The notes under the pieces: model-generated
The model's input: only the letters and a program-made list of their open reading frames with translations
What the model was told of the DNA's origin: nothing
Databases searched by the model: none
Shown: positions 16,344 to 57,917 of the stretch, piece by piece
Position numbering within the stretch: the stretch's first letter is position 1
Layout of the letters: each line of letters begins with the position of its first letter
Translations under genes and position numbers: made by a program
Assembly (NCBI GenBank): GCA_050942955.1
Contig: JBMNOG010000005.1
Coordinates: 307-64,306 of the forward strand
Source of the DNA: Patescibacteria group bacterium
GTDB lineage: Bacteria > Patescibacteriota > Microgenomatia > UBA1400 > UBA1449
DNA length: 64,000 bases
Direction: 5' to 3'

Positions 16344-16382
16344 TTGACATGGGTTAGCAGTCTTGCTAGACTAGTGCTAGCA
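16344..16382 (+). promoter_or_regulatory. Promoter (TTGACA ... TAGACT) overlapped by a CIRCE-like inverted repeat, the HrcA operator
   Basis: TTGACA at 16344-49 and TAGACT at 16367-72, with a 17-bp spacer. TTAGCAGTC-N9-TAGTGCTAG at 16354-16380 differs from the CIRCE consensus TTAGCACTC-N9-GAGTGCTAA at 3 of 18 positions. Confidence 0.5.
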
Positions 16383-16457: not shown

Positions 16458-17195
16458 GTGGAATTTCCGAGCCTAACTGACAGACAGGTCCAAATTTTAA
16501 AATGTGTTATTGAAGAATATATTGAAAGTGGTGAGCCAGTAGGCTCTGAGACACTAGACAAAAAATATAACCTGGGAGTTTCTCCGGCAACCATCCGCAA
16601 TGAGATGGTAATTCTTACCCAGCAGCAATTTTTACACCAACCTCACACCTCTTCCGGCCGCGTGCCCTCTCCGATGGCTATGCGTTTTTACGTAAAGCAA
16701 CTCATGCAAGAAAAAGAATTGTCAGTTAGCGAAGAAGTAGATGTTAAGTCCCGAATTTGGGATTACCGTGATAAAGCTAACAAACTTCTAAGAGAGGCTA
16801 CGCACATTCTTTCTCAAAAAACTAACAGTATTGGCATAGCAATTACTGATCAGGACGAAGTTTTTCATGCCGGGTATGCCAATATTTTGGATATTCCTGA
16901 ATTTTTTGATATTGATGTCACCAAAACTGTACTTTCTATTCTAGATGACAAACAAAGACTAGAGTTTATTTTCAGTAAGGGGCAGGGTGAAGAACCAATC
17001 CATATTTTACTGGGAGATGACTTTGAGATAGAGTTTTTGCGTCCCTGCGGTGTTGTCTATACCAATTTTCGGTTAGGCTCCCGCGCAGAGGGCAATCTTG
17101 GAGTTATTGGTCCTTCAAGGTTAGATTATCCTTATGTTATTCCGTTCATCAGGTATTTCGGCCGATTGATAACAGAAGTAACCAAGGATTGGTAG
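16458..17195 (+). CDS. hrcA: Heat-inducible transcription repressor HrcA
   Basis: GTG start. LTDRQVQILKCVIEEYIESGEPVGSETL...SPATIRNEM is the HrcA winged-helix N-terminus. 245 aa (somewhat short). Confidence 0.8.
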   Translation: MEFPSLTDRQVQILKCVIEEYIESGEPVGSETLDKKYNLGVSPATIRNEMVILTQQQFLHQPHTSSGRVPSPMAMRFYVKQLMQEKELSVSEEVDVKSRIWDYRDKANKLLREATHILSQKTNSIGIAITDQDEVFHAGYANILDIPEFFDIDVTKTVLSILDDKQRLEFIFSKGQGEEPIHILLGDDFEIEFLRPCGVVYTNFRLGSRAEGNLGVIGPSRLDYPYVIPFIRYFGRLITEVTKDW

Positions 17196-17252
17196 TATTT
17201 CACGGTCCACTTCATTTTATTTTAATGCACAAAAGTTACAATATAGTCCATT

Positions 17253-17747
17253 ATGAAAAAAAGTATTGATGATACAAGTAAACAAATAAAAAAACACAAA
17301 AAAGAAAATGAAAAAGCTGGAATAAAAGAGCTAAAGCAGGAATTGCAAGATACCCAGCAGAAATGGTTGAGGGCTGTAGCTGATTACCAGAACTTAGAAA
17401 GAAGACTACAAAAGGAACGTGAGGAGTGGGTAAAGTTTTCCAATGTTAATCTTTTGAATCGGATACTGGATGCTATTGATCAGATGGATAGGGCAGCAGT
17501 ATTTGTTAAAGACCCAGGATTGGAAATGATTCGCAAAAGCTTTAAAGATATACTACATGAATTCGGAGTTGAGGAACTTGAGATTGAGGGTAAAGAGTTT
17601 GATCCGGCGTTAATGGAATGTGTGGATAAAAAACAAGGTAAGGAGAATAAGGTTTTAGAAGTTGCGCAAAAAGGTTACAAATTACATGATCGGGTGCTTA
17701 GACCTGCCAAAGTAGTGGTAGGTAGCAGCCAAAACTCAAATAGTTAA
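17253..17747 (+). CDS. grpE: Nucleotide exchange factor GrpE
   Basis: Coiled-coil N-terminus. VADYQNLERR matches the GrpE motif. It precedes dnaK. Confidence 0.85.
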   Translation: MKKSIDDTSKQIKKHKKENEKAGIKELKQELQDTQQKWLRAVADYQNLERRLQKEREEWVKFSNVNLLNRILDAIDQMDRAAVFVKDPGLEMIRKSFKDILHEFGVEELEIEGKEFDPALMECVDKKQGKENKVLEVAQKGYKLHDRVLRPAKVVVGSSQNSNS

Positions 17748-17776
17748 CATAAATAAATAGTTTACGAGGAGGTATT

Positions 17777-19696
17777 ATGGCAACAAACTCAAAAATCATC
17801 GGTATAGATTTGGGAACCACCAATTCGGCGGTGGCCATTATGGAAGGTGGTAAACCCAAAGTTATTCCTTCAGCTGAAGGTGGGAATGTGATTCCTTCAA
17901 TTGTTGAGCCAGAAAAAAATCTGGTGGGAGAAGTAGCAAAACGCCAGATGATTCTTAATCCGGAAAACACAGTTTACAGTGTTAAAAGATTAATGGGAAG
18001 AAAGATTAATGATGATGAAGTTAAGAAAATTCAAGATATGGTGCCCTACAAAATTGTTGAAGGGAAAAACGGCTCAGCTGCGATAAAAGTAAGTGGCAAA
18101 ACGTATACGCCCCAAGAAATTTCAGCCAAAATCTTGCAAAAGATTAAAGCTGATGCAGAGGCGTACTTGGGTGAAACAGTCGATAGAGCAGTAATTACTG
18201 TTCCGGCTTATTTTAACGACTCTCAGCGTCAAGCTACAAAACAGGCAGGCGAAATTGCTGGGCTTAAAGTTGAAAGAATTATCAACGAACCTACGGCTGC
18301 AGCTTTAGCCTATGGTAGTGAACAGCAGAAAAACGAGAAGATTGCCGTCTATGATCTCGGTGGCGGTACGTTTGATATCTCCATTCTGGAATTGGGTGAT
18401 AATGTCTATGAGGTAATTTCAACTAATGGTGATACCCATCTTGGTGGAGATGATTTCGACCAGGCGATCATAGACTGGATTGTGTCTGAGTTTAAGAAAG
18501 AAAATGGCATTGATCTAAAGCAAGACAAGCAGGCTCTGCAGAGAATTAAGGATGCTGCTGAAAAAGCCAAGAAAGAACTCAGTTCTTCCCAGGAGACAGA
18601 AATTAACCAGCCCTTTATTACCCAATCCAAAGAAGGCCAACCGCTTCATTTAACTATGAAGTTGACTCGATCCAAACTTGAACAACTCACTGATCATCTA
18701 ATTGAGAGAAGTATGGAAACAGTCAGAAAGGCTCTCAAAGATGCCAAACTGGAACCCAAAGACATTAATGAAGTGATTTTGGTTGGAGGACAAACCAGAA
18801 TGCCTAAAGTTCAGCAGGTTGTCAAAGACTTTTTTGGCAAAGAACCTAATAGATCTGTAAACCCTGATGAGGTTGTAGCTGTTGGGGCTGCTGTGCAGGC
18901 AGGAGTTTTAATGGGAGATGTTAAGGATGTTTTGCTTTTGGATGTCACACCGTTAACTCTGGGTATTGAAACCTTGGGTGGGGTGATGACTCCCATGATT
19001 GAGCGCAATACAACAGTCCCAACCTCAAAATCTCAGGTGTACTCCACAGCTGCCGATAACCAGACCCAAGTAGAAATTCACGTTCTCCAGGGGGAAAGGC
19101 CGATGGCAGTGGATAACAAGTCTTTAGGCAGATTTATTCTGGATGGTATTCCGCCAGCTCCAAGAGGGGTTCCTCAGATTGAAGTGACGTTTGAGCTGGA
19201 TGCAAATGGGATTCTTAACGTCACTGCTAAAGATAAAGCCACTAACAAAGAGCAAAAAATTACCATTAAAGGCTCGACTGAACTTACTGATGAGGAAGTT
19301 GAGAAGATGCGCAAAGAGGCAGAGTCTCATGCTGAAGAAGACCGGCTCAAGAAGGAAAGAGCAGAGGTGCGTAATCAGGCCGATACTCTCATCTTTACTG
19401 CAGAGAAAACGCTAAAAGATGCCGGAGATAAGGCTAAAGCAGAAGACAAAAAAGCGGTTGAGGAAGCCAAAGAAGACCTTAAAAAAGCAATTGAAAAAGA
19501 AGACTTTAACAAAGAAGATGTTGAAGCCAAATCAAAACTTCTTTCTGAGGCCTTGCAAAAAATCGGAGCTGCTATGTATCAATCTGAACAGCAGGCAGCC
19601 GGCGGTGCCCAGCCAGCAGGAGACAGCGAAGCTAAAAAAGAAGAGAAAAAAGAAGGTGAAGGTTCCGTGGAAGAGGGTGAAGTGGTGAATGAGTAA
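17777..19696 (+). CDS. dnaK: Chaperone DnaK (Hsp70)
   Basis: [21 protein letters not shown] and the full Hsp70 architecture. A GAGGAGG RBS sits 7 nt upstream. Confidence 0.97.
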
Positions 19697-19720
19697 AAAT
19701 TGGCAATGTTATTATAGGAA

Positions 19721-19752
19721 ATGGGGGTTCGTCTGAACCCCCATATTTTTAC
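19721..19752 (+). terminator. Rho-independent terminator after dnaK
   Basis: Perfect 10-bp stem ATGGGGGTTC/GAACCCCCAT with a GTCT loop, followed by ATTTTTA. Confidence 0.55.
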
Positions 19753-19757
19753 CAAGG

Positions 19758-19785
19758 TTACTCCTAACTGAAAACATACTATAAT
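19758..19785 (+). promoter_or_regulatory. Candidate promoter for dnaJ: weak -35, TATAAT -10
   Basis: TATAAT at 19780-85. A weak -35, TTACTC, lies 16 bp upstream. The element sits between the dnaK terminator and dnaJ. Confidence 0.3.
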
Positions 19786-19823
19786 TAATCTGACATATAA
19801 CAAGAAAAACACAGTATCAATTT

Positions 19824-20672
19824 ATGACTACAAAACGAGATTTTTACGAAGTTTTAGGGGTTCAAAAAACCGCGACACAGGATGAAATAAAGAGAGCCTA
19901 CCGCAAGTTAGCTCTCCAGTACCATCCTGATAAAAACAAAGCCGCTGATGCAGCCGATAAGTTCAAAGAGGTCAATGAGGCGTATGAGGTGTTGTCAGAC
20001 TCCAAGAAACGTCAACAGTATGACCAGTTCGGCCATGCCGCTTTTGACCCGGCTTCAGGTTTTGGCGGTTTCCAGGGTGGACGAACCTATCGTTCCGGGC
20101 CGTTTACCTACACGTACTCATCTAACTTTGGTGAAGGTTTTGATTTTGGCGGTTTTTCTGACCCGTTTGAAATCTTTGAACAGTTTTTTGGGGGGGGCTT
20201 TAGGAGAGCGCAGGCAAAACCACGTTACTCTTTGAAAATTGACTTTATGGAGTCAGTAAGAGGGACGGAGAGGAAAATTGTCCACCAGGGTAAAGAGCAT
20301 ACCATAAAAATTCCGGCCGGAGTGGATGACGGCACGAGAATTAGATTTGATGAGTTTGATGTTACTATTGATGTCCTGCCTCACAAAGAGTTTAAAAGAG
20401 AGGGGTACGATATCTTTATTGACCATGAAATTCCGTTTACCCTGGCGGCTTTAGGAGGGACCACAGAAGTGCCTACCCTTGACGGCAGTTTGAAAGTAAA
20501 AGTTAGGCCAGGTACACAGTCCGGAACGATGATGCGCTTAAGGGGTAAAGGAGTGCCGTACTTAAGAAGAAGTGGAGCAGGAGATGAATATATCAGGCTC
20601 ATTGTTGATGTTCCTCAACGTTTGAGCCGCGAACAAAAAAGGATACTCGAAGAGTTTCAAAAAACATTGTAA
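19824..20672 (+). CDS. dnaJ: DnaJ-family co-chaperone of CbpA type (J domain plus G/F region plus C-terminal domains, no Cys-rich zinc finger)
   Basis: J domain DFYEVLGV...[17 protein letters not shown]-rich linker. The CxxCxGxG repeats are absent. Confidence 0.8.
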
Positions 20673-22317: not shown

Positions 22318-22334
22318 ATACAAATATTCTCCAT

Positions 22335-22407
22335 TGCGGGATCGTCTAACGGTAGGACATGCGACTCTGAATCGCAGAATCTTGGTTCGAATCCAGGTCC
22401 CGCAGCC
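22335..22407 (+). tRNA. tRNA-Gln (anticodon CUG)
   Basis: Folded by hand. Acceptor stem TGCGGGA/TCCCGCA. 4-bp D stem. Anticodon stem TGCGA/TCGCA with loop CTCTGAA, giving anticodon CTG flanked by U33 and A37. T arm CTTGG-TTCGAAT-CCAGG. Discriminator G followed by CC. Confidence 0.8.
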
Positions 22408-22607
22408 CTAGCCTCAATCCAATATTAATTTTCCAACTTTAGCTTTTTTTAATAAAGAAAACTTCTAACACTGCTGTTGCTACTATTTCACAATTACTTC
22501 TTCCTACCTTACAGACCTCTTGCCAATCCTTAATAGACCTCTCAACCTTCTATCTTAGGGTAGGGAGTGTAGATTATTGAGCAGTTAAAGAAAGGTGGTG
22601 AAACAAC

Positions 22608-23162
22608 ATGGCAAATGGATATTGGGGAGGTCGTGGTGGAGGCTACTATGATCCATACTACGGAGGAGGATATGGCGGCTATGGGGGATATGGTGGTTAC
22701 TATGATCCCTATTATGGTGGCGGTTACTGGGGCGGTCCGTACTACGGTGGTTACGGAGGTGGCTATGGCGGCTGGGGTGGAGGAGGTTACTATGAACCTT
22801 ACACTTATAGCGGTTACTACTCAAGACCATACTGGGAAGGACCTTGGACTGGAGGCAGATACTACGACTACAATGCCAACTACATTCTAGAAGATGATGA
22901 GATAGCGGATTTAGTGAGAGACAATATTGATCTAGACCCATACATCTCACGTTCTGATAAAGATAAAATTGAAGTAGAAGTCAAAGACGGCACTGTCCAT
23001 CTTTCTGGTAATGTCCGTGACAGGCGCAGTAAGCCTCTGGCATACGCAGACGCGTTCTGGACAGATGGGGTGGTGGATGTAGAAAGCGAGATCAAAGTCC
23101 AGCAGAGGGAAGAAAAAGAAGGCAAGGAGCGGAAAAGTGGTAGGGGCAGGGGTAGATCGTAA
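22608..23162 (+). CDS. Gly/Tyr-rich low-complexity protein with a C-terminal BON (OsmY-like) domain
   Basis: The N-terminal ~80 aa consist of GGYGGY/YYDPYYGGGY repeats. The C-terminus (DNIDLDPYISRSDKDKIEVEVKDGTVHLSGNVRDRRSKPLAYADAFWTDGVVDVESEI) fits the BON-domain pattern. Confidence 0.6.
   Translation: MANGYWGGRGGGYYDPYYGGGYGGYGGYGGYYDPYYGGGYWGGPYYGGYGGGYGGWGGGGYYEPYTYSGYYSRPYWEGPWTGGRYYDYNANYILEDDEIADLVRDNIDLDPYISRSDKDKIEVEVKDGTVHLSGNVRDRRSKPLAYADAFWTDGVVDVESEIKVQQREEKEGKERKSGRGRGRS
22620..22830 (+). repeat. Low-complexity GGY/TAY-GGT codon repeat (encodes the Gly/Tyr-rich segment)
   Basis: Reiterated GGTGGTTAC/GGAGGCTAT units. They generate long spurious ORFs in the other frames and on the opposite strand. 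Confidence 0.6.
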
Positions 23163-23335
23163 GCTTTCTCATGCAATAGAGATTTATGGCAGCACTTGGT
23201 GTTTGAATTTAAGGTGTTGCATGCTGATTTTTGCCTACTTAGCTTATTAAAGTTATCTTACCCGTTTCTTACATAAAACTTACTGTGCTCTATGGAATAG
23301 ACTCTACCATAAAGGCTGAAAGGAGGTTCTGATGT

Positions 23336-23869
23336 ATGGCACAAAATAAACCGCAAACCAAAAAAGAAGAGCTTATAAGAGAAGTGAAGGGCGATCTAAT
23401 TGATCCGACACAGAATGCCCAGGAATTTGTCGTAGATACCCAAGGATTTACAGGGGTAACTGTTAGCAATCAGGGCGATGACATTACCCAGACCGATATT
23501 TTTGGAAAGCTGAATGAGCCAAGTGTGCGGGAAGGGATGTCAGATGCCCAAAGGGACATTAACAGGTATAAAAGTTTAGATCCTGAAGAAGACAGGAAGA
23601 ATAATGATACAGTACCGAAAAATCTTGCTAAACCTCCAGAGTTAGATATTAGAGGTACAGGGAATGATACTCTCAATGAAGCTACGCCGCCCTCTGTAGA
23701 AGGAGAGCAGTCTGTAAGTGGAGATATGCCTGATCCGGCCTCAGATGACGATACTCTGGAGAATGCGCAGAATATGGGTTTTAAGCTAGATGAAGACACC
23801 GAACATCCAAAACCTCTAGATACGGCAGGTGATATCGATAGGGCTGAAGAATATCACCGGAGAAAGTAA
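23336..23869 (+). CDS. Acidic, intrinsically disordered hydrophilic protein (hypothetical)
   Basis: 177 aa, rich in D, E, T, N, Q and P, with no hydrophobic core. A GGAGG RBS lies upstream. The stop overlaps the next start (ATGG / TAATG). Confidence 0.4.
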   Translation: MAQNKPQTKKEELIREVKGDLIDPTQNAQEFVVDTQGFTGVTVSNQGDDITQTDIFGKLNEPSVREGMSDAQRDINRYKSLDPEEDRKNNDTVPKNLAKPPELDIRGTGNDTLNEATPPSVEGEQSVSGDMPDPASDDDTLENAQNMGFKLDEDTEHPKPLDTAGDIDRAEEYHRRK

Positions 23870-24192
23870 TGGCAAGAAGTACTAAGGTCACTACTGACCA
23901 TACTGAAATTAGAGCTTGGGTAGAAAAGTATCAAGGTCGGCCAGCTCTTATTACTCTTCCAACTTCTGAAAGTGACGATATTGCTCTTAGAATTGATTTT
24001 CCTGGCAGCCAAGATGAAGAGCTTCTAAGTAAAACCAAGCCTTCAAAGCCAATATCTTGGGAGGATTTTTTTAAGGTGTTTGAAGAAAGCAACCTGGCGT
24101 TTGTGTATGACCAGAGACCGCAGTTTGACAACCCCACTTTAGCCTACAGATTCATCTACCGTTCAGGGCAAAATACCCCTCCTGAAATCTAG
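23869..24192 (+). CDS. Hypothetical small protein
   Basis: 107 aa, translationally coupled to the upstream gene. No recognised motif. Confidence 0.35.
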   Translation: MARSTKVTTDHTEIRAWVEKYQGRPALITLPTSESDDIALRIDFPGSQDEELLSKTKPSKPISWEDFFKVFEESNLAFVYDQRPQFDNPTLAYRFIYRSGQNTPPEI

Positions 24193-27218: not shown

Positions 27219-27656
27219 ATGAATAAAGACCTAAAAGTTAAGGCTGTATATCCGTACGAAAGGAAAGAGGATTATAAGTTACCTCTTTACACCACCAAGG
27301 TTCCTGCCGGGTTTCCTTCTCCGGCTGATGACTATATCGAAAGTAAATTGGACCTAAACAAATTTCTGGTAAAACATCCTAGCGCTACGTTTTTTGTGAG
27401 AGTTGAAGGGGAGTCCATGAAGGACGCCGGTATTTACCCCAACGATATTCTGATTGTGGATAGAGCCGTAGAGCCTAAAGCCAACCACGTGGTTATTGCT
27501 GCTGTTAATGGAGAGCTGACAGTGAAAAGGATTTATGTTTCCCGAAAGAAGTTGTTCCTTATCCCCCAAAATCCCCAGTACAAACCTATGGAAATAACAA
27601 AGGATATGGATTTTGAGATTTGGGGGGTTGTTACTCACGTTCTTCACAAAGTCTAA
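27219..27656 (+). CDS. umuD: UmuD-like S24 peptidase (translesion polymerase accessory subunit)
   Basis: VPAGFPSPADDY...VRVEGESMKDAGIYPNDILIVDR...VIAAVNGELTVKRIY carries the Ser/Lys dyad context of UmuD/LexA C-terminal domains. Confidence 0.75.
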   Translation: MNKDLKVKAVYPYERKEDYKLPLYTTKVPAGFPSPADDYIESKLDLNKFLVKHPSATFFVRVEGESMKDAGIYPNDILIVDRAVEPKANHVVIAAVNGELTVKRIYVSRKKLFLIPQNPQYKPMEITKDMDFEIWGVVTHVLHKV

Positions 27657-27682
27657 ATTTTTCTTGGGTATAGTGGGAGGTA

Positions 27683-28585
27683 ATGAAGATAGGTTATGCC
27701 TCAACAAATACTTCTCTTCCCTGTAAAAGTACAAAAACCTTTCGGTTCAGCTCGTTTTCGGAAGCCCGTTTTCGTGAGACTGTTGTCAATAACCTAGACT
27801 GTTTAAAGCAAATCTTAAACTTCAATCTCCAGCACAATATCTTATTTTTCCGTATTACTTCTGACCTTATTCCTTTTGCTTCTCATCCTATAAACAGAAT
27901 TCCCTGGCAGGAGATGTATGCAGACAAACTAGCATCTTTGGGAAAATTTGTTTGGGAAAAGGGTATGAGAGTTGGGATGCATCCGGATCAGTTTGTGGTT
28001 ATTAACTCTTCCTCTTCGGAAGTGGTTAAAAACAGCGTAGCGGAACTTGTTTACCATGTAGAAGTTTTGAATCTGATGAACCTGGACTACTCTCACAAAA
28101 TCCAGATTCACATTGGGGGAGCATACGGGGATAAGCTTTCAGCCACTGCACGTTTTATAAACCGCTATAAAAGCTTACCGGAAACAGTTAAGCGTCGGTT
28201 GGTAATTGAAAATGATGAAACGCTTTACGGAGTCAAGGATTGTCTTTGGGTTTCTGAGCAAACAGGCATTCCGATTGTTTTTGACATTTTCCATTACCGG
28301 ATTAAAGAGTATAAAGATACTGTAAAAGAAGTGATGCAAAAAGTGGCCTTGACTTGGAAACAGGTTGATGGGCTGCCTATTGTTGACTACAGCAACCAAG
28401 CTCCTAATAAGCGTTTTGGGTCACACAGTCAAACTATTGATACTGCCGATTTTATGCGCACAGTACAAGAACTAAAAGGTTTTGACTTTGACATTATGCT
28501 TGAAGTAAAAGATAAAGAAATAAGTGCAATTAAAGCTTTAGAAGCTATAAAACAAAGGTATGCAAAAGAAAGTAGCTCTCATTGA
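27683..28585 (+). CDS. uvdE: UV-damage endonuclease UvdE
   Basis: MKIGYASTNTSLP...ITSDLIPFASHP matches the UvdE TIM-barrel family N-terminus. 300 aa. Confidence 0.7.
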   Translation: MKIGYASTNTSLPCKSTKTFRFSSFSEARFRETVVNNLDCLKQILNFNLQHNILFFRITSDLIPFASHPINRIPWQEMYADKLASLGKFVWEKGMRVGMHPDQFVVINSSSSEVVKNSVAELVYHVEVLNLMNLDYSHKIQIHIGGAYGDKLSATARFINRYKSLPETVKRRLVIENDETLYGVKDCLWVSEQTGIPIVFDIFHYRIKEYKDTVKEVMQKVALTWKQVDGLPIVDYSNQAPNKRFGSHSQTIDTADFMRTVQELKGFDFDIMLEVKDKEISAIKALEAIKQRYAKESSSH

Positions 28586-29834
28586 CTGCAATAACTTCTT
28601 TGTTTCCTGCGAAAGACTTTTTAATCCTCAACTTAAAGACAAACCAATAGTAGTCTTGTCCAACAACGACGGCTGTATTGTTTCTCGTTCTAATGAGGCT
28701 AAGGCTCTAGGGATTGCCATGGGGATGCCTTTATTTAAATGTCTAGATGTGGTCAAAAAATATGACGTCCAAGTTTTTTCTTCTAACTTTATTTTGTATG
28801 GAGATATTTCACACCGGGTTATGGATACATTAAGACAATTTTCACCTGAGGTTGAAATATACTCAATTGATGAAGCTTTTATAGCTTTAAATCTAAATAC
28901 CAATCAAGAAACTGTTGAGTACGGAAAAAAGATCCGTGAAACGATACTAAAATGGGTGGGAGTTCCGGTCTCAGTTGGCATTAGTTCCACTAAAACTCTA
29001 GCTAAAGCTGCCAGCGAGATTGCCAAGAAAAACCTTGATTTTGAAGGAGTATTAGAAATAGACAAAGAAAACGTTGATATTATGCTATCTGTTTTGCCTG
29101 TTGGAGATGTGTGGGGAATAGGCAGGCAGTACGCTAGGTTCTTAAAAAAACATGCAGTTGAAACTGCTCTTGATCTTCGTGAACTATCTGACGAATGGGT
29201 TAGGAAAAATCTTACTGTCTCAGGACTGAAAACTGTTTGGGAACTGAGAGGTAAAGGCTGCATTGATTTTGAGCATGTGCCTCCTGCCAGAAAATCAATT
29301 ATCAGTTCACGATCGTTTGGAAAACCGGTGGCCGACTATATCAGCTTACGGGAAGCGGTTGCCAGTTACACTTCAATAGCTGCAGAGAAGTTGCGCAACC
29401 AGAAACTGGTAGCCTCTTGTGTTTTAGTTTACATAACTACCAACCGGTTTAAAGAGCAAGAAAAACAGTATTCCAATTCTTATGTTCTTAGATTACTGGA
29501 AGCTACCAATGATACATCTATCCTAGTAAAACACGCCACTGAAGCCTTGAAAAAGATTTACAAAAAGGGTTTTAAGTATAAAAAAGCTGGAGTGCTCTTG
29601 CTGGATCTGGTTTCTGAAAACAATATACAGGCAAACTTATTTACCAACCAGCGAGGAAAGATTAAAAGAAGTAAACTCCTGCATGCTTTAGATTTCATTA
29701 ACAACCGCTGGGGAGGCAACACAGTAAGTGTCGCGGCAGCCGGCATTAAAAAACCGTGGAAGGCAAACCAAGCTAGAAAAACAGGCAGACTAACTACTTC
29801 TTGGGACGAGCTTCCGAAAGTTAAAACTAGATAG
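28560..29834 (+). CDS. umuC: Y-family translesion DNA polymerase UmuC
   Basis: VALIDCNNFFVSCERLFNPQLKDKPIVVLSNNDGCIVSRS is the canonical UmuC/DinB N-terminus. It overlaps the uvdE 3' end by 26 nt. Confidence 0.85.
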   Translation: MQKKVALIDCNNFFVSCERLFNPQLKDKPIVVLSNNDGCIVSRSNEAKALGIAMGMPLFKCLDVVKKYDVQVFSSNFILYGDISHRVMDTLRQFSPEVEIYSIDEAFIALNLNTNQETVEYGKKIRETILKWVGVPVSVGISSTKTLAKAASEIAKKNLDFEGVLEIDKENVDIMLSVLPVGDVWGIGRQYARFLKKHAVETALDLRELSDEWVRKNLTVSGLKTVWELRGKGCIDFEHVPPARKSIISSRSFGKPVADYISLREAVASYTSIAAEKLRNQKLVASCVLVYITTNRFKEQEKQYSNSYVLRLLEATNDTSILVKHATEALKKIYKKGFKYKKAGVLLLDLVSENNIQANLFTNQRGKIKRSKLLHALDFINNRWGGNTVSVAAAGIKKPWKANQARKTGRLTTSWDELPKVKTR

Positions 29835-29893
29835 CTATGGGTTTTGGGGAATAGCTGGTATAGTATGGTAGTTCGATTTATACTACCCTGCCT

Positions 29894-31954
29894 ATGGCTA
29901 TTGATCTTAGTAAACATCTAAACCCGTCCCAGTACAAAGCAGTGGTAACGACAGATAAGCCTGTTTTAGTTATTGCCGGCGCAGGTTCAGGCAAGACTCG
30001 GGTAATTGAGTATAAAGTGATTCATTTGCTGGAGAAAAAAATTAATCCACAGTCTATTTTGCTCTTAACGTTTACACGTAAAGCTGCTTCTGAAATGCTG
30101 TCGCGAGCCGGCAGACATGATGTCCGCTGTGAGCAAATTGAAGGAGGTACGTTTCACTCTTTTGCATACAAAGTCCTCAAACGTTTTGCCCAAAAAGTTG
30201 GATTGCCTAACTCGTTTTCAATCTTGGATGATAGCGACGCTAATGAACTTATTGCTAGATGTACGGTTAAGCTCGGTCTTCTGGATGTAGAAAAGCGTTT
30301 TCCGAAAAACGAAACCCTCAAAAGCATTATTAGTAAATCCATAAACAAGCAATCTTCAATTAAGGCTGTTTTGGAACGGGAATATCCGCAGTTTGAAGAG
30401 TTCAGCCAGGAGATAACCCGGCTTAGAGAAGTTTATTTCCGTTATAAACGGGAAGTGGGATATGTGGATTATGATGATCTACTAGTTTACCTTAAGATGT
30501 TGCTTGAAGTGTCTGACTTGCGGCAGAGGATAGCTTCCCAGTTCCAGTATGTTATGGTTGATGAGTACCAGGACACGAATAAACTCCAGGGAGATATTGC
30601 CTATCTATTAGCTGAAAGCCACGGGAACATTATGGCTGTAGGTGATGATGCCCAGAGTATTTATGGCTTTAGGGGTGCAACCCACCAAAACATCATGGAG
30701 TTTCCCCTGCAATTTCCAGGGTGTGAAGTTATTAAGCTTGAGCAAAACTACCGCAGTACCCAGTCTATCCTTGATGTTTCCAATGTGGTTTTGGATAACA
30801 TGAGTAAAAAATATGAGAAACGCCTGGTTGCCTCAAAAGAGGATTTGGGGCTAAGACCCCAGTTTGTTGGTTTCAAAAATTCTTACCAGGAAGCAGAGTG
30901 GGTAGCAAAAACTATAAAAGAGCTAAGAGATGATGGTATACCTCTTGGCAAACAGGCCGTGTTGTTTAGGTCTGCGTACATTTCCATTTCTCTTCAGGCT
31001 GAACTTAACCGGTTAGGTATTCCCTTTAGAGTCTATGGTGGTTTGAAGTTTTATGAAACAGCCCACGTCAAAGACATGGTGGCTTTACTTAAAATTCTGC
31101 AAAGTCCTAGAGATGAGTTGGCGTGGAGTCGGGTACTAAGGTTTATTGAAGGCGTTGGACCCGTAACTGTAGATAAAATCACTGCTGCGTTTGCTGAAGA
31201 AACTACTTTAACAGGTGTTTTGACTATACTGGAGAAACAGTTTGGACGAGGATTTAAATTTTCAAAAGATATTGAAAAGATTGTCAAGGTCTACGAAAAC
31301 CTTATCGGTATAGATTCAGTTGAAATTCAATTTATTAAACTAATCGAGTACTATGACTCGATTTTGCGTAAAAAGTATGACGAATGGCATCTTAGACGCA
31401 ATGATTTAGATGTGTTAGCTGAAATCGCTTCCGGTTATAAATCCCTTGAGCAGTTTCTGGTTGATTTAGCCTTAGAACCACCCCAGCAGGGTGTAGCTGA
31501 AGTAGGGGCGGAGTTGGACGATGAAACTCCGCTGACTCTTTCTACTATCCACTCAGCCAAGGGTCTTGAGTGGGATGTAGTATTTGTTATCGGTATGGTT
31601 GATGGAGTCTTGCCGAGCCGTTTCTCTCTTCGTTTTAAAGATCAGCTTGAAGAAGAACACCGCCTTTTTTACGTGGCAGTTACCAGAGCCAAGCAGTATC
31701 TGTATTTGACCATGCACCATGAAGGTAGTCGTTATGGGTTATCTCAATTCAACCGGGTGTCCCGATTTTTAGAAAGTAGAAATATCTTAGAAAAACTTGA
31801 TCAGCAACTTATTGAGCATAAAACGTTTCAAATAGAAAGAACGAAGCTTGCCAAAGATAAAAGAATGCGTTTAGTAAGTGATGACTTTGAGGAGATCGAC
31901 ACTACCGATAAAAAGTCTCTATTCAAAAAAATCAATGATTCGTGGAAGTGGTAG
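29894..31954 (+). CDS. UvrD/PcrA-family ATP-dependent DNA helicase
   Basis: Walker A AGAGSGKT. DEYQDTN. QNYRST. VTRAK near the C-terminus. 686 aa. Confidence 0.85.
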   Translation: MAIDLSKHLNPSQYKAVVTTDKPVLVIAGAGSGKTRVIEYKVIHLLEKKINPQSILLLTFTRKAASEMLSRAGRHDVRCEQIEGGTFHSFAYKVLKRFAQKVGLPNSFSILDDSDANELIARCTVKLGLLDVEKRFPKNETLKSIISKSINKQSSIKAVLEREYPQFEEFSQEITRLREVYFRYKREVGYVDYDDLLVYLKMLLEVSDLRQRIASQFQYVMVDEYQDTNKLQGDIAYLLAESHGNIMAVGDDAQSIYGFRGATHQNIMEFPLQFPGCEVIKLEQNYRSTQSILDVSNVVLDNMSKKYEKRLVASKEDLGLRPQFVGFKNSYQEAEWVAKTIKELRDDGIPLGKQAVLFRSAYISISLQAELNRLGIPFRVYGGLKFYETAHVKDMVALLKILQSPRDELAWSRVLRFIEGVGPVTVDKITAAFAEETTLTGVLTILEKQFGRGFKFSKDIEKIVKVYENLIGIDSVEIQFIKLIEYYDSILRKKYDEWHLRRNDLDVLAEIASGYKSLEQFLVDLALEPPQQGVAEVGAELDDETPLTLSTIHSAKGLEWDVVFVIGMVDGVLPSRFSLRFKDQLEEEHRLFYVAVTRAKQYLYLTMHHEGSRYGLSQFNRVSRFLESRNILEKLDQQLIEHKTFQIERTKLAKDKRMRLVSDDFEEIDTTDKKSLFKKINDSWKW

Positions 31955-53779: not shown

Positions 53780-55474
53780 TTAAATGAATTCTAGAGAGCT
53801 CAATATAACATCTATTCTCTTTGCATCATCCTCTGAGAGAGTAGGACTGAAGGTAGCATACCAAATATCAAAAATATAGTCATTGTGTTTGACTAGATAT
53901 TTATCTCCAGGATACTCGGAAAAGTCTTCAAGCTCCAAAAACAATGCCTCTTTATTTTTAAATGTAGTCTCTTTAACCTTGTAGTTTAAACTGCTGGCCT
54001 TTATTAGTTTCCAGTATTCTTTAACTTCTAGGGCAGTCTCAGCGACTTGAATCTTAAAAATGTACCCTGTCTTTCGGATGAAAGTGATACTACTGTCAGT
54101 TTTAATAACATTCACCGCATTTTTGGGATAGTTTAACTGTATACCGATAGTGCCATCCTTAATAGTATCCCACTGGGTTTCGGCAAAAGGCACATTAGCT
54201 TGTGATTCTGCATACTTCTCGTCACTTACCCCTTTAGTTTGAGGTTGAGATTGCGTTTGAGTCTCAGGAGGAGTGGTTGGCTGAGAAGATTCGTTTATTT
54301 TTTTTCCCAACTCTGCTTGTTCTGTTACTGGTTGAGCGTCAGGGGGCAGATATTCTTGGAGTAGTGTTGTATCTACTTCCGTATTGCGGTTGAGAGTCAT
54401 CCATACAACTCCACCAATAATTGAAACTAAAAGTATTGTTGAACCTAGAACTACAAGAGGTTTAGGGATCTTCGAAAAGAACCCTTTTTTTTCATTTTTT
54501 TCAGGTTGGGTTGGGGTTTGCTTAGTTGATGGTTGGTTTTGGGCCAATTTATCCTGGACGGGAACTGACTGTGCTGGTTGCTCTTGAGTTAGCCTAGATT
54601 GCTCTGATTGAGTAGTGGTCGCTTGTTCAGGTTTTTGCTCCTCTGGTTTGGCTGCTGGTTGAGTCTGAGGTTGAGATTCTTGTGGAGAGGTATTAGTTTC
54701 GGTTGATGTACTTACTTGAGTATTAGTTTGAGATGCTTCCGGTTGGACAGGCGCAGGTGAAGCAGATACTGGTGCCGGCTGGTTTACGGGAGTAGTCACT
54801 GCAATCTTTTCGCTCTCAATTAGTTGATTCATGGCTTGAACTACTTCCTGAAGCTCTTTAGAAATGGTGAAAAACTTATTCTTGGTGATAGGCTCACTGC
54901 GATGCATGTCTTTTCGTAAGCTCTTGATGGTACTCTCCAGTTTCTTCTTCTCGTCAGTAAAAGAATCCTTCATCTCTTCAAGTTCTTTTTTAAGACGGCT
55001 TTCTTTTTTTGAAGAATGTTCTATTTTCTTTTCGATGAGTGAAAGTTTCTCATTCACATCGTGATTTACAAAATCCGGCTTATTGTCTACTTCTGCTTCT
55101 TGTTCAACTATGCTTTTTGGTAGTGAAAATTCCTCTGATAAGCTAGTCTCTGAAGCTGGAAGTTCGGTCTCAGAAACTGGCGACAAAGTGGAGTTATGCT
55201 TTTGAGAAACTTTTTCTATCTGTTTAATAGATTCAAGCTTTTCTAACTGAGTTTTTATCTTCTGATCCAATTCCTCTTTCAATCTTTGAGCTTGTTTAAT
55301 TTTCTCTTCAAGCTCGTTGAGCTCAGGAGCGTCCTGTTTTAAGGGTGGATTAGACTTAGAAGAGGAGATAGGCGAATAAGATTCCTGGGATTGCTTCAGA
55401 CGTTTAATTGGTCTGTAAAATCCAGGTTTTGACCGGCCTGCGGAACTAGTAAGATACTTCTTTGTTCTTGCCAT
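53780..55474 (-). CDS. Large coiled-coil / PQT-rich protein with a central TM segment (hypothetical)
   Basis: N-terminal coiled coils, a Gln/Pro/Thr-rich region, a TM (VVLGSTILLVSIIGGVVWM) and a C-terminal globular domain. Confidence 0.45.
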   Translation of the reverse strand: MARTKKYLTSSAGRSKPGFYRPIKRLKQSQESYSPISSSKSNPPLKQDAPELNELEEKIKQAQRLKEELDQKIKTQLEKLESIKQIEKVSQKHNSTLSPVSETELPASETSLSEEFSLPKSIVEQEAEVDNKPDFVNHDVNEKLSLIEKKIEHSSKKESRLKKELEEMKDSFTDEKKKLESTIKSLRKDMHRSEPITKNKFFTISKELQEVVQAMNQLIESEKIAVTTPVNQPAPVSASPAPVQPEASQTNTQVSTSTETNTSPQESQPQTQPAAKPEEQKPEQATTTQSEQSRLTQEQPAQSVPVQDKLAQNQPSTKQTPTQPEKNEKKGFFSKIPKPLVVLGSTILLVSIIGGVVWMTLNRNTEVDTTLLQEYLPPDAQPVTEQAELGKKINESSQPTTPPETQTQSQPQTKGVSDEKYAESQANVPFAETQWDTIKDGTIGIQLNYPKNAVNVIKTDSSITFIRKTGYIFKIQVAETALEVKEYWKLIKASSLNYKVKETTFKNKEALFLELEDFSEYPGDKYLVKHNDYIFDIWYATFSPTLSEDDAKRIDVILSSLEFI

Positions 55475-55556
55475 GACAGAAGTTTAGGAAAAGATACCTT
55501 ATATAACAGTAGCAACTTTGGATTTTTCTTGCAAGATGGAAGAAAGATTACTACTG

Positions 55557-56871: not shown

Positions 56872-57819
56872 TTAACCCTTAAACATTACTTTCAGGACTT
56901 TAGCCAAGCGTTTTCGGCCGACAACCAGAGTCAAAACAAAACCCACGATTGCTACTGCCGCAACAAACCCTAAGATGAGTACCATTTTTGGAATGACTGT
57001 AAACTTAGTTGCAGCAGTTAACGGCAATTTATTTTGTCCGTACGTAGCTATTAGAGTTGCGGTAAAGACACCCATTACGTTTGCCTGATCCCATGTAGTC
57101 TCCATTTTCCGAATAGCCCCTGGAAGAACATTTCTGCCTTCAAGTGGAATTTCAGCTACTTTTTTACCGAAAATGTTGGTAATAACAATGGTACCTTGAG
57201 GAATAATGTGAGTATTACTCTCATTTTTAACCCTGGCTAAAAGTTTTACGGGCCCCTTTTCCAGATATTTAGGTGCAGAAAAATCTTCAAGTATTGCCTT
57301 TTCAACTACGTTTCCTGAAACTCTGAGCAGCACCAATGTACCCACTCTTTGTGCCACTTTGGCTCCTCCCGGCACATCTGTATCAGCACCTGTCTGGAAA
57401 AGGATTGAAGCGTAGTGTCCTCCAGGTTCACCATTCCGGGGAATATTAATCATGAAATTAAATGCCTGTTCTTCCTTAGGCTGGAGGATTATGTCTCGAG
57501 TTGATGGCTCAATCCATTTTGCTAACGAATACGATGCATCAGATTCTCCCTCTTCCAACACCACATGTCCTTCTTCCCCGCTTGTGGTAAAGTCTTCAAC
57601 GAGGATACTATACGTCATTGGTTCATCTGACTCATTTCTCACTCTGATTTTTTCTGAAATGGTGTCTCCGGGATTACCAAATAACTCAAACTTAGGTGGA
57701 ATAACAGTAAGTGCACTGCTATTCTGAGCCTGAGCAGGAGAGCTTACTAGTATGGCAGTGAGCAGAAAGGAGATAAGGGCGAGGGGCAGCTTATGAGATG
57801 AGGAGCTTAAGAGTTTCAT
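56872..57819 (-). CDS. Cell-surface protein with signal peptide and C-terminal TM plus basic tail (DUF916/DUF3324-like architecture)
   Basis: Signal peptide ending AQAQ. ~270-aa ectodomain. TM LILGFVAAVAIVGFVLTLVV followed by GRKRLAK. Confidence 0.4.
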   Translation of the reverse strand: MKLLSSSSHKLPLALISFLLTAILVSSPAQAQNSSALTVIPPKFELFGNPGDTISEKIRVRNESDEPMTYSILVEDFTTSGEEGHVVLEEGESDASYSLAKWIEPSTRDIILQPKEEQAFNFMINIPRNGEPGGHYASILFQTGADTDVPGGAKVAQRVGTLVLLRVSGNVVEKAILEDFSAPKYLEKGPVKLLARVKNESNTHIIPQGTIVITNIFGKKVAEIPLEGRNVLPGAIRKMETTWDQANVMGVFTATLIATYGQNKLPLTAATKFTVIPKMVLILGFVAAVAIVGFVLTLVVGRKRLAKVLKVMFKG

Positions 57820-57917
57820 AGATTATTTTTGATATTAACTCAAAAGATATAAGCTTGTCAAAGTTTTTAACTAAGTATTGTAATAGTAATCTAAGAAAGC
57901 TTTTTTGTCCACAGTTA

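Follow-up and report, generated by a model that had tools for sequence, protein, structure and literature searches.

A glycine/tyrosine-rich BON-domain protein of Patescibacteria and a candidate stress regulon marked by a phased TCTTAC repeat

What does a member of the ultra-small Patescibacteria do with a protein that joins a dense run of glycine and tyrosine to a BON domain, and under what control is it made? The question is raised by an open reading frame (ORF) at positions 22608-23162 (+), here called the GY-BON gene, in a 64-kb stretch of DNA from a Patescibacteria group bacterium (contig JBMNOG010000005.1 of GenBank assembly GCA_050942955.1); the window below is this whole stretch. A preliminary description had read the gene, with an acidic neighbour, as a desiccation or osmotic-stress module. 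We find a statistically robust cis-element, the direct repeat TCTTAC-N5-TCTTAC, that links GY-BON to its two downstream neighbours and, in relatives, to small stress-type genes and a two-component system. This points to a co-regulated set of stress-protection genes that has not been described before. Given how the repeat is distributed (stress-type genes, the gene of a PAS kinase), GY-BON is most likely an effector of a stress regulon under two-component control, which we propose with moderate confidence; that it is a self-assembling protectant we infer with low to moderate confidence. The best explanation as a whole, a three-block effector of a two-component stress regulon whose aromatic block self-associates and protects the cell, is put forward tentatively, its chances coming close to even without reaching it.

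The GY-BON protein and its family

The gene is a real ORF of 184 codons that encodes three blocks. Its start is the first start codon past an in-frame stop, and the Shine-Dalgarno sequence AAGGTGGTG (22592-22600 (+)) ends 7 nt before it; every other family member has a ribosome-binding site of the GGAGGTG type or a close variant, in nearly all of them at the same place. The gene is probably genuine and well translated. An identical copy of the protein is found on three other independently assembled contigs, and the protein of a neighbouring gene is 100% identical to one from an NCBI metagenome-assembled genome (MAG) named 'Patescibacteria group bacterium'. Two overlapping ORFs, at 22585-22950 (-) (121 aa) and 22615-22890 (+) (91 aa), were rejected as genes and are by-products of the repetition of GGN and TAY codons.

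The first block (codons 1-83, 22608-22856 (+)) is a disordered stretch rich in Gly and Tyr, with Trp and Pro, that contains three YY[DE]PY units, 35% aromatic residues and about 42% Gly. Gly and Tyr reach 50% and 31% in residues 1-62, and residues 1-95 have 37% Gly, 29% Tyr, 6% Pro and 5% Trp; 33 of the 92 residues at the N terminus are aromatic. The peptide GGYGGYGGYYDPYYGGGY, quoted in the preliminary description, corresponds to residues 23-40. The best 60-aa stretch of the protein is 83% Gly plus Tyr, and the runner-up among the open frames of the whole window reaches 30%. AlphaFold, run with the family alignment, leaves residues 1-90 unstructured (predicted local distance difference test, pLDDT, <50; no secondary structure in the block), and the aromatic residues are spaced more evenly than in shuffled sequences (P=0.027). 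The low-complexity character of this N terminus, as originally claimed, is confirmed, and comparable regions are present in the orthologues. The label 'prion-like' has no evident support in its Q/N-rich sense: the 83 residues hold no Gln, 1-3 Asn and 2 Ser, and five [GS]Y[GS] motifs.

About 40 distinct relatives could be collected, nearly all from Patescibacteria of the Microgenomates/WWE3 type. A word-indexed search returned 10 close and 3 distant ones. An exhaustive profile search with the BON part against a library of 1.8 billion proteins gave 8,408 BON proteins, and among the best 150 of these were only 11 short single-BON relatives, the rest having about 500 aa and six BON domains. These best-scoring long proteins (P0122-P0270, e.g. 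P0123) mostly have 470-550 aa, six BON domains in tandem and a signal-peptide-like N terminus. A scan of 185,579 species genomes yielded 14 loci in Shapirobacteria, Daviesbacteria, WWE3 and unclassified Patescibacteria, two of them in a 'Clostridia' MAG that is syntenic with the Shapirobacteria locus (identities of 77% for PPase and 50% for Ku) and probably carries the wrong label. Another 19 loci came from a scan of metagenomes. The source MAGs come from aquifers, deep mines and sediments. One distant lineage (P0011-P0013; L028 4844-5701) has proteins of 233-297 aa with a GYG/RGG/D-rich N terminus of 130-210 residues, one BON domain, an S/R-rich tail and no signal peptide, and looks like an independent instance of the design of G/Y-rich disorder plus a single BON domain.

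The N termini of the family are rich in aromatic residues, Gly and Pro, are 34-92 residues long and cannot be aligned with each other; the window copy exceeds all others in length and in its number of aromatic residues (33). The 38 distinct N termini, when pooled, contain 24% G, 20% Y, 12.5% P, 5% W and 4% F, and only 0.2% K, 0.9% E and 4.8% I+L+V. Absence of the G/Y region from orthologues would have suggested a slippage or assembly artefact, as the preliminary description had pointed out. No relative lacks a comparable N terminus; because, in addition, tandem repetition in the GY-BON DNA is limited to 26 bp, the two YYDPYYGGGY units differ synonymously at 9 of 13 codons (non-synonymously at one) and the protein recurs on three contigs, such an artefact is ruled out. 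All the Gly and Tyr codons are used in the block. The shared composition of the 38 N termini, the synonymous divergence of the repeat units and the even spacing of the aromatic residues argue that selection acts on the composition of this region rather than on its sequence. The opposite reading, a neutral and slippage-prone expansion beside a BON domain that alone matters, could draw on the variable length, the failure to align and the look of the window copy as a lineage-specific expansion of YYDPYYGGGY; against a composition that is tight over the 38 sequences, with K, E, I, L and V nearly excluded, and units that differ almost only synonymously in DNA with almost no tandem repeat, it appears extremely improbable.

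A linker conserved in the family (codons 84-95, 22857-22892 (+); motif (R)YYDYNANYILED, with YDYNxN retained across the family alignments; pLDDT 82 at residues 91-100) leads into a single acidic BON domain (codons 96-165, 22893-23102 (+)). The hidden Markov model search suggested in the preliminary description bears out the domain: over residues 96-165 this C-terminal part aligns to positions 2-68 of the 69 in the Pfam BON profile (PF04972), scoring 43.7 bits (E 3.5e-11; cut-off 27). AlphaFold predicts the alpha-beta-beta-alpha-beta fold there at pLDDT 94-96, with helices at 96-109 and 115-120, strands at 122-126 and 129-136, a helix at 141-150 and a strand at 157-164. The top Foldseek matches in the PDB were OsmY (8rjx), BonA (6v4v), DolP (7a2d) and Kbp (7pvc), and OsmY was the sole sequence match of the family profile among solved structures. 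The full-length family alignment has 27 invariant columns, 26 of them from D96 onward (26 of 87 in the BON part); they include an R-S-K-x-L-x-Y-A-D-A-F-W stretch (commonly RRSKPLAYADAFW) on helix alpha2. The third block is a basic tail of RG type, QQREEKEGKERKSGRGRGRS (codons 166-184 plus stop, 23103-23162 (+), net charge about +4), which ends in GRGRGRS; in the family the tails vary, being basic, RG-rich (some RGG-like) or Q-rich, and some are absent. The charges are about -3.5 for the N-terminal block, -8.1 for the BON domain and +3.8 for the tail, and -7.4 for the whole protein.

The more specific labels given to the domain fared less well. 'OsmY-like' does not describe a protein with one BON domain, no signal peptide and a score of 15.5 against the NCBIfam OsmY model (NF007858, cut-off 174). 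Membrane or phospholipid binding is not a general property of BON domains either. DolP binds anionic lipid (phosphatidylglycerol/cardiolipin) through W127 on an extended, non-acidic helix alpha1 of its second BON domain, and Bryant et al. showed that not every BON domain binds lipid and that binding is disfavoured where alpha1 is acidic (PMC7806268); helix alpha1 of GY-BON, EDDEIADLVRDNIDLD, is strongly acidic by its sequence. By these comparisons the protein is best taken as a member of the BON family that is neither OsmY nor DolP nor Kbp.

Neither a signal peptide nor a transmembrane segment nor a Cys lipobox was found in GY-BON by hydropathy and sequence inspection, since no segment is hydrophobic (maximum 19-residue Kyte-Doolittle mean 0.39), and the small protein is probably cytoplasmic. 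The same applies to the family: none of the about 40 members has a signal peptide, lipobox or hydrophobic N terminus, and there are 0-7 I/L/V residues before the BON domain. This bears on the idea that GY-BON, like OsmY, DolP and BonA, acts in the envelope, exported by a non-classical route to the wall or the outer membrane face, where the G/Y block would be an adhesive or cross-linkable matrix. All the solved close folds except Kbp are periplasmic, secreted G/Y-rich adhesives such as the tick cement glycine-rich protein have been described (PMC11794139), and Patescibacteria are described as living attached to hosts. With export signals missing throughout the family, an ORF start fixed by the upstream stop and a strong Shine-Dalgarno sequence, and the failed comparisons with OsmY and DolP, we consider an envelope role very unlikely.

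A phased direct repeat and a candidate regulon

TCTTAC hexamers at an 11-bp phase were first seen on inspecting the upstream regions of the family. Each 160-bp upstream region was scored against TCTTAC-N5-TCTTAC as matches out of 12, with shuffled sequences as control. Matches of at least 10 were found in 13 of 17 regions (1% of shuffles) and of at least 11 in 8 of 17 (0.06%). The repeat lies 76-115 bp 5' of the ATG (about 76-130 bp over most of the family), occurs in the coding orientation only and is specific to a spacing of 11, spacings of 6-10 and 12-16 giving 0-4 regions at 10/12. In an independent metagenome set, five of the eight new family genes with a complete upstream sequence carry it.

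In the window, GY-BON is preceded by CCTTAC-agacc-TCTTGC (10/12; 22507-22523 (+)), 101 bp 5' of its ATG, with a weaker phased CTTAA at about 22529. The next gene, encoding an acidic 177-aa protein, has four phased half-sites, TATTAA/TCTTAC/TCTTAC/ACTTAC (23245-23283 (+)), 53-91 bp 5' of its start. Among these is the sole perfect TCTTAC-N5-TCTTAC of the 64 kb (23256-23272), with phased copies either side at 23245 and 23267. Matches at 10/12 are, over the window, indistinguishable from chance (16 found, 7.5 expected). Two of them, at 57880-57896 (-) and 55531-55547 (-), stand in promoter position before a protein with WxL-interacting and peptidoglycan-binding domains (56872-57819) and a 564-aa protein (53780-55474) that has no significant Pfam family.

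Over 265 kb of non-redundant loci the enrichment is much stronger: 25 sites matched at 11/12 or better, against 2.25 +/- 1.6 expected from block shuffles, and seven were perfect, against 0.05 expected. Nearly all are correctly oriented and stand 40-115 bp 5' of an ORF. The genes behind them are GY-BON itself, a BON paralogue (BON2), a homologue of the 107-aa protein encoded downstream of the acidic gene in the window, Pmp3, a Transgly_assoc protein of the GlsB/YeaQ type, a PsbP-like protein (in three genomes), a 48-aa basic peptide, a PAS kinase, Rad52 and an aldo-keto reductase (with back-to-back sites), and a DUF6766 protein beside a homologue of the acidic protein. The 48-aa peptide, MADKDDVQMMDNQTPRGRGWFGNPKAHAEAGRKGGLARSRKYNNNKNK, is encoded at L001 1661-1807 (-) with a perfect repeat at 1891-1907; its EAGRKGG is reminiscent of KGG/YciG-type hydrophilins, a resemblance only, as there was no Pfam match even at E<=10, and this identity was dropped.

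Regulators of the OmpR/PhoB type classically bind tandem hexamers phased at 11 bp. An OmpR-type regulator (Response_reg plus Trans_reg_C; 1974-2645 in L001) and a soluble PAS histidine kinase, which has no membrane anchor, are encoded no more than 4 kb from the BON pair of L001/L015 and that of L018, and a repeat site stands before the PAS-kinase gene; homologues of the kinase or the regulator are also present in L011, L014, L039 and L046. By analogy, the OmpR-type regulator may be what binds the TCTTAC repeat. Among solved structures, M. tuberculosis PhoP comes closest to the regulator. The best NCBIfam matches were CztR, PhoB and MtrA for the regulator and PnpS and PhoR for the kinase, all below the equivalog cut-offs (182 vs 400; 205 vs 296), and no name could be given to the system.

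These scores, with PnpS/PhoR best for the kinase, PhoB second for the regulator and PhoP as the closest structure, are the starting point for a different view of the regulon, as real and of the Pho type, answering phosphate limitation, with GY-BON as a starvation or dormancy factor. Pho boxes are themselves 11-bp-phased direct repeats. A kinase without a membrane anchor, the distance of both scores from their cut-offs and a target set (BON, Pmp3, GlsB-type, Rad52, aldo-keto reductase) in which no pst, phoU or phosphatase gene was seen behind the sites lead us to regard a Pho regulon as unlikely.

Genes around GY-BON

Upstream of GY-BON the window contains, in this order, hrcA-grpE-dnaK-dnaJ, gltX and a tRNA-Gln; the last, with anticodon CTG (22334-22408 (+)), is the sole tRNA of the window. 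Directly 5' of hrcA-grpE-dnaK-dnaJ (16458-20672) is a CIRCE-like inverted repeat, TTAGCAGTC-N9-ACTAGTGCTAG (three mismatches; 16354-16380 (+)), so that by sequence these genes appear as a classical HrcA heat-shock unit. HrcA/CIRCE control does not extend to GY-BON, as this is the sole CIRCE-like site and none is near the gene. Scans for intrinsic terminators and sigma-70 promoters around GY-BON gave nothing above chance, and a search of the flanking spacers turned up no inverted repeats.

Downstream of GY-BON come the acidic 177-aa gene and the 107-aa gene, a 237-aa ORF, and genes for YidC-like, SPFH/Band-7 and VTT/DedA proteins. Hydrophilins, as set out by Garay-Arroyo, have more than 6% Gly and a hydrophilicity index above 1 (mean hydropathy below -1). 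The acidic protein (23336-23869 (+); isoelectric point 4.36), probably disordered, without a Pfam match and a putative co-regulated partner, lies within these limits (Gly 6.8%; grand average of hydropathy, GRAVY, -1.20), and the hydrophilin-like neighbour claimed at the outset is thus real. Its family has 18 members, the two with a source name coming from Patescibacteria/Saccharimonadales; the N-terminal part is variable and disordered, and the C terminus has the conserved motif GEQSVSGDMPDPxSDDDTLxNAQxMGxxLDEDxEHPxxLD. Two paralogues stand in tandem in L025 (4001-4561 and 4614-4928). All other BON loci are without this gene next to the BON gene, and its homologues have contexts without BON, which rules out a conserved operon of the two. 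The proposed joint stress module gains independent support from the phased TCTTAC repeat, which both units have at the same promoter distance and which fronts small stress-type genes in relatives; the pairing itself gains none, the acidic gene not being a conserved neighbour of BON.

The start codon of the 107-aa gene (p107; 23869-24192 (+)) overlaps the stop of the acidic gene (TAATG), and because of this overlap the two are probably translationally coupled. The family is widespread, with 107 matches that include myxobacteria and Phycisphaerae, and shares the motifs TTDHxEIRxW...GxPA...LRIDFPG...ISWxxFFxxFExxxLAFxYQ; no Pfam, NCBIfam or PHROG model, no PDB sequence match and no fold match (model pLDDT 73) was found for it. 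It adjoins BON genes in three unrelated contexts. A homologue is divergent beside the GY-BON orthologue in L003/L012 (L003 5490-5840 (-)), with its own TCTTAC site in L003, and another lies about 650 bp from a different single-BON gene in the unrelated locus L009 (4001-4315).

A further recurrent neighbour, absent from the window, is a PsbP-like protein, hydrophobic at its N terminus and about 180-213 aa long, encoded convergently just downstream of GY-BON in many genomes and with its own TCTTAC-type site (L001 8013-8642 (-), L011 5369-5917 (-), L014 5337-5978 (-); also L029, L035, L040 and L046). One subclade keeps the order BON paralogue, GY-BON and the convergent PsbP-like gene, with the genes of the OmpR-type regulator and the PAS kinase at most 4 kb away and often with Ku, AhpC and Rad52 nearby.

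Membrane proteins are frequent in these surroundings. The putative regulon partners are often small membrane proteins (Pmp3, the Transgly_assoc/GlsB-YeaQ type, a 79-aa transmembrane protein, the PsbP-like protein with its hydrophobic segment), to which the SPFH/Band-7, VTT/DedA and YidC-like genes of the window may be added, and Trp and Tyr favour membrane interfaces. The Tyr/Trp/Gly block, and not the BON domain, might accordingly adsorb to the membrane from its cytoplasmic side once lipid packing is perturbed and form a protective coat with the small membrane proteins of the regulon. We judge this fairly unlikely for a protein of net charge -7.4 in which AlphaFold predicts no amphipathic helix and whose alpha1 is very acidic, a feature thought to repel anionic lipid in the first BON domain of DolP.

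Beyond the VTT/DedA gene follow genes for an S24 peptidase, UvdE, a Y-family polymerase and UvrD. This DNA-damage run (27219-31954 (+)) encodes an S24 peptidase of the LexA/UmuD-like type with 145 aa and a polymerase with IMS and DUF4113 domains. Genes for Ku, Rad52, a Y-family polymerase, LexA, UDG and RecG are found near GY-BON orthologues in other lineages. With Rad52, Ku, Y-family polymerase, UvdE and UvrD genes in the regulon or near it, GY-BON could be a nucleic-acid chaperone, whose Y/G block (F/YGG type) and RG tail bind RNA or DNA to protect or silence ribosomes, mRNA or the nucleoid in dormancy. The GRGRGRS end of the tail and the RGG-like tails of some orthologues agree with this, and the Tyr/Gly-rich regions of hnRNPA2 are described as disordered motifs that bind nucleic acids (PMC9067507). 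The protein is net acidic, its tails are not conserved (some are Q-rich, some absent), and Arg plus Lys make up 2.5% of the pooled N-terminal blocks; the BON fold is not known to have a nucleic-acid role. A chaperone of this kind is distinctly unlikely.

Proposed role and comparison with known systems

The explanation that we prefer, GY-BON as a protective effector of a two-component stress regulon, would work as follows. On a shift in crowding, ionic strength or water activity, the multivalent aromatic block would self-associate reversibly, either into a gel or condensate or into a layer that coats the membrane from inside. Tyr and Trp would be the 'stickers' and Gly and Pro the spacers of a neutral disordered block, and Tyr-Arg contacts and electrostatic contacts between tail and BON domain may assist assembly. 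The acidic BON domain would keep the protein soluble and offer a specific binding surface on the invariant helix alpha2; together with the basic tail it would make a block-polyampholyte layout, in which head-to-tail contacts are possible and the sticky block is kept soluble. As to the stress in question, desiccation specifically is doubtful, as the aquifer, deep-mine and sediment origin of the family makes it a poor candidate for the specific selective agent; osmotic stress, starvation or dormancy is at least as plausible. The regulon may parallel the enterobacterial sigma-S/osmotic set that includes OsmY, YciG and YqaE. In Salmonella, yqaE and the hydrophilin yciG are among the small proteins that depend on sigma-S (PMC5437024), and in cells tolerant of desiccation and stress hydrophilins are induced together with proteins of DNA repair and of the oxidative-stress response (PMC13552118).

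Several points weigh against this explanation. The half-site was found in the same set that gave the first statistic, the independent parts being the spacing, the orientation, the metagenome set and the site before the acidic gene. Three divergent family members have no repeat, the site of GY-BON in the window is imperfect (10/12), and no regulator or kinase of the type described is encoded within the 64-kb window. The repeat could be a promoter element of an alternative sigma factor rather than the site of a regulator, and best scores of PhoR/PnpS and PhoB type mean that phosphate starvation could be the signal. Neighbours other than p107, BON2 and the PsbP-like gene are not conserved, and the gene order differs between lineages. 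Finally, known liquid-forming domains have far fewer aromatic residues than the 35% of this block, which might aggregate or simply collapse into a globule instead.

The putative regulon with its operator is the most useful new lead of this work. Few Patescibacteria (candidate phyla radiation) are in culture, and their gene regulation and stress physiology are almost unknown; the analysis provides an operator motif, a candidate regulator/kinase pair and a small list of effectors (BON, Pmp3, GlsB-type, acidic disordered and 107-aa families). If the Gly/Tyr block does assemble, aromatic sticker-spacer behaviour would extend to some of the smallest known cells, and the poorly understood cytoplasmic single-BON proteins would gain a concrete role; if it does not, the gene is a lineage-specific BON-domain stress protein of ordinary interest. 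The searched literature contained no paper that ties BON domains to G/Y-rich regions, to Patescibacteria or, as something the domain itself does, to phase separation, and a 2025 survey of BON proteins mentions no more than generic disorder at the termini and, for the most part, Sec signals (PMC11747388). At its boldest, and in our opinion rather doubtful, the proposal would be a general-stress regulon of Patescibacteria under a two-component system and the operator TCTTAC-N5-TCTTAC, with a cytoplasmic BON protein as signature effector whose dense Tyr/Trp-Gly block gels or condenses the cytoplasm or coats the membrane reversibly. This would be a convergent counterpart of the eukaryotic Gly/Tyr-rich condensate and matrix proteins, and the BON fold would newly appear as the soluble, specific head of an assembling protein.

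How does such a protein compare with systems that are better known? GY-BON is small, Gly-rich, highly hydrophilic (Gly 22.8%, GRAVY -1.09, within the hydrophilin limits given above) and apparently stress-regulated, as are the hydrophilins YciG of E. coli/Salmonella, DtpA/DtpB of A. baumannii, Hsp12 of yeast and the late embryogenesis abundant (LEA) proteins. The classical ones are charged, fully disordered and poor in aromatic residues, whereas the disordered part of GY-BON carries almost no charge, has about 35% aromatic residues and is joined to a folded domain. Hydrophilins, whose definition is cited in PMC5437024, are proposed to protect proteins and membranes (PMC13552118, PMC5437024).

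With the eukaryotic Gly/Tyr low-complexity domains (FUS-type, F/YGG of hnRNPA2, plant glycine-rich RNA-binding proteins, tick cement glycine-rich protein) the block has in common Gly spacers, Tyr stickers and predicted disorder; it differs in having no Ser/Gln/Asn component and only five [GS]Y[GS] motifs, in its partner, a BON domain and not an RNA-recognition motif, and in being bacterial. Its aromatic density is about two to three times theirs. The likeness is one of composition only and implies no homology. Self-association or phase separation is described for such eukaryotic domains (PMC10888811, PMC9067507, PMC13261584, PMC11794139).

Among BON proteins, OsmY of E. coli, periplasmic and induced by sigma-S and osmotically, is the best match in sequence and fold among solved structures, and the GY-BON gene likewise appears in a stress regulon beside small hydrophilic and membrane proteins. 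OsmY, however, combines a Sec signal peptide with two BON domains and lacks a G/Y-rich block, and the regulation of GY-BON appears to use an OmpR-type operator and not sigma-S. DolP (YraP) and BonA share the BON fold (Foldseek ranks 2-4) but are outer-membrane lipoproteins with two BON domains, unlike GY-BON with its single domain, acidic alpha1 and no lipobox. The cytoplasmic, K+-binding Kbp/YgaU (BON+LysM) resembles GY-BON in its fold, its single BON domain and its lack of a signal peptide; GY-BON has no LysM (no match at E<=1, and 19 residues only after the BON domain), a disordered N terminus instead and no evidence of K+ ligands. Lastly, the regulons of OmpR/PhoB-type regulators (PhoB, PhoP of B. 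subtilis and M. tuberculosis, KdpE) have, like the one proposed here, 11-bp-phased direct repeats of a hexamer just 5' of the promoter, a site before the gene of the putative cognate kinase and a regulator composed of Response_reg and Trans_reg_C; the half-site TCTTAC, the set of targets, the soluble kinase and scores that reach no equivalog set the candidate regulon of GY-BON apart from them.

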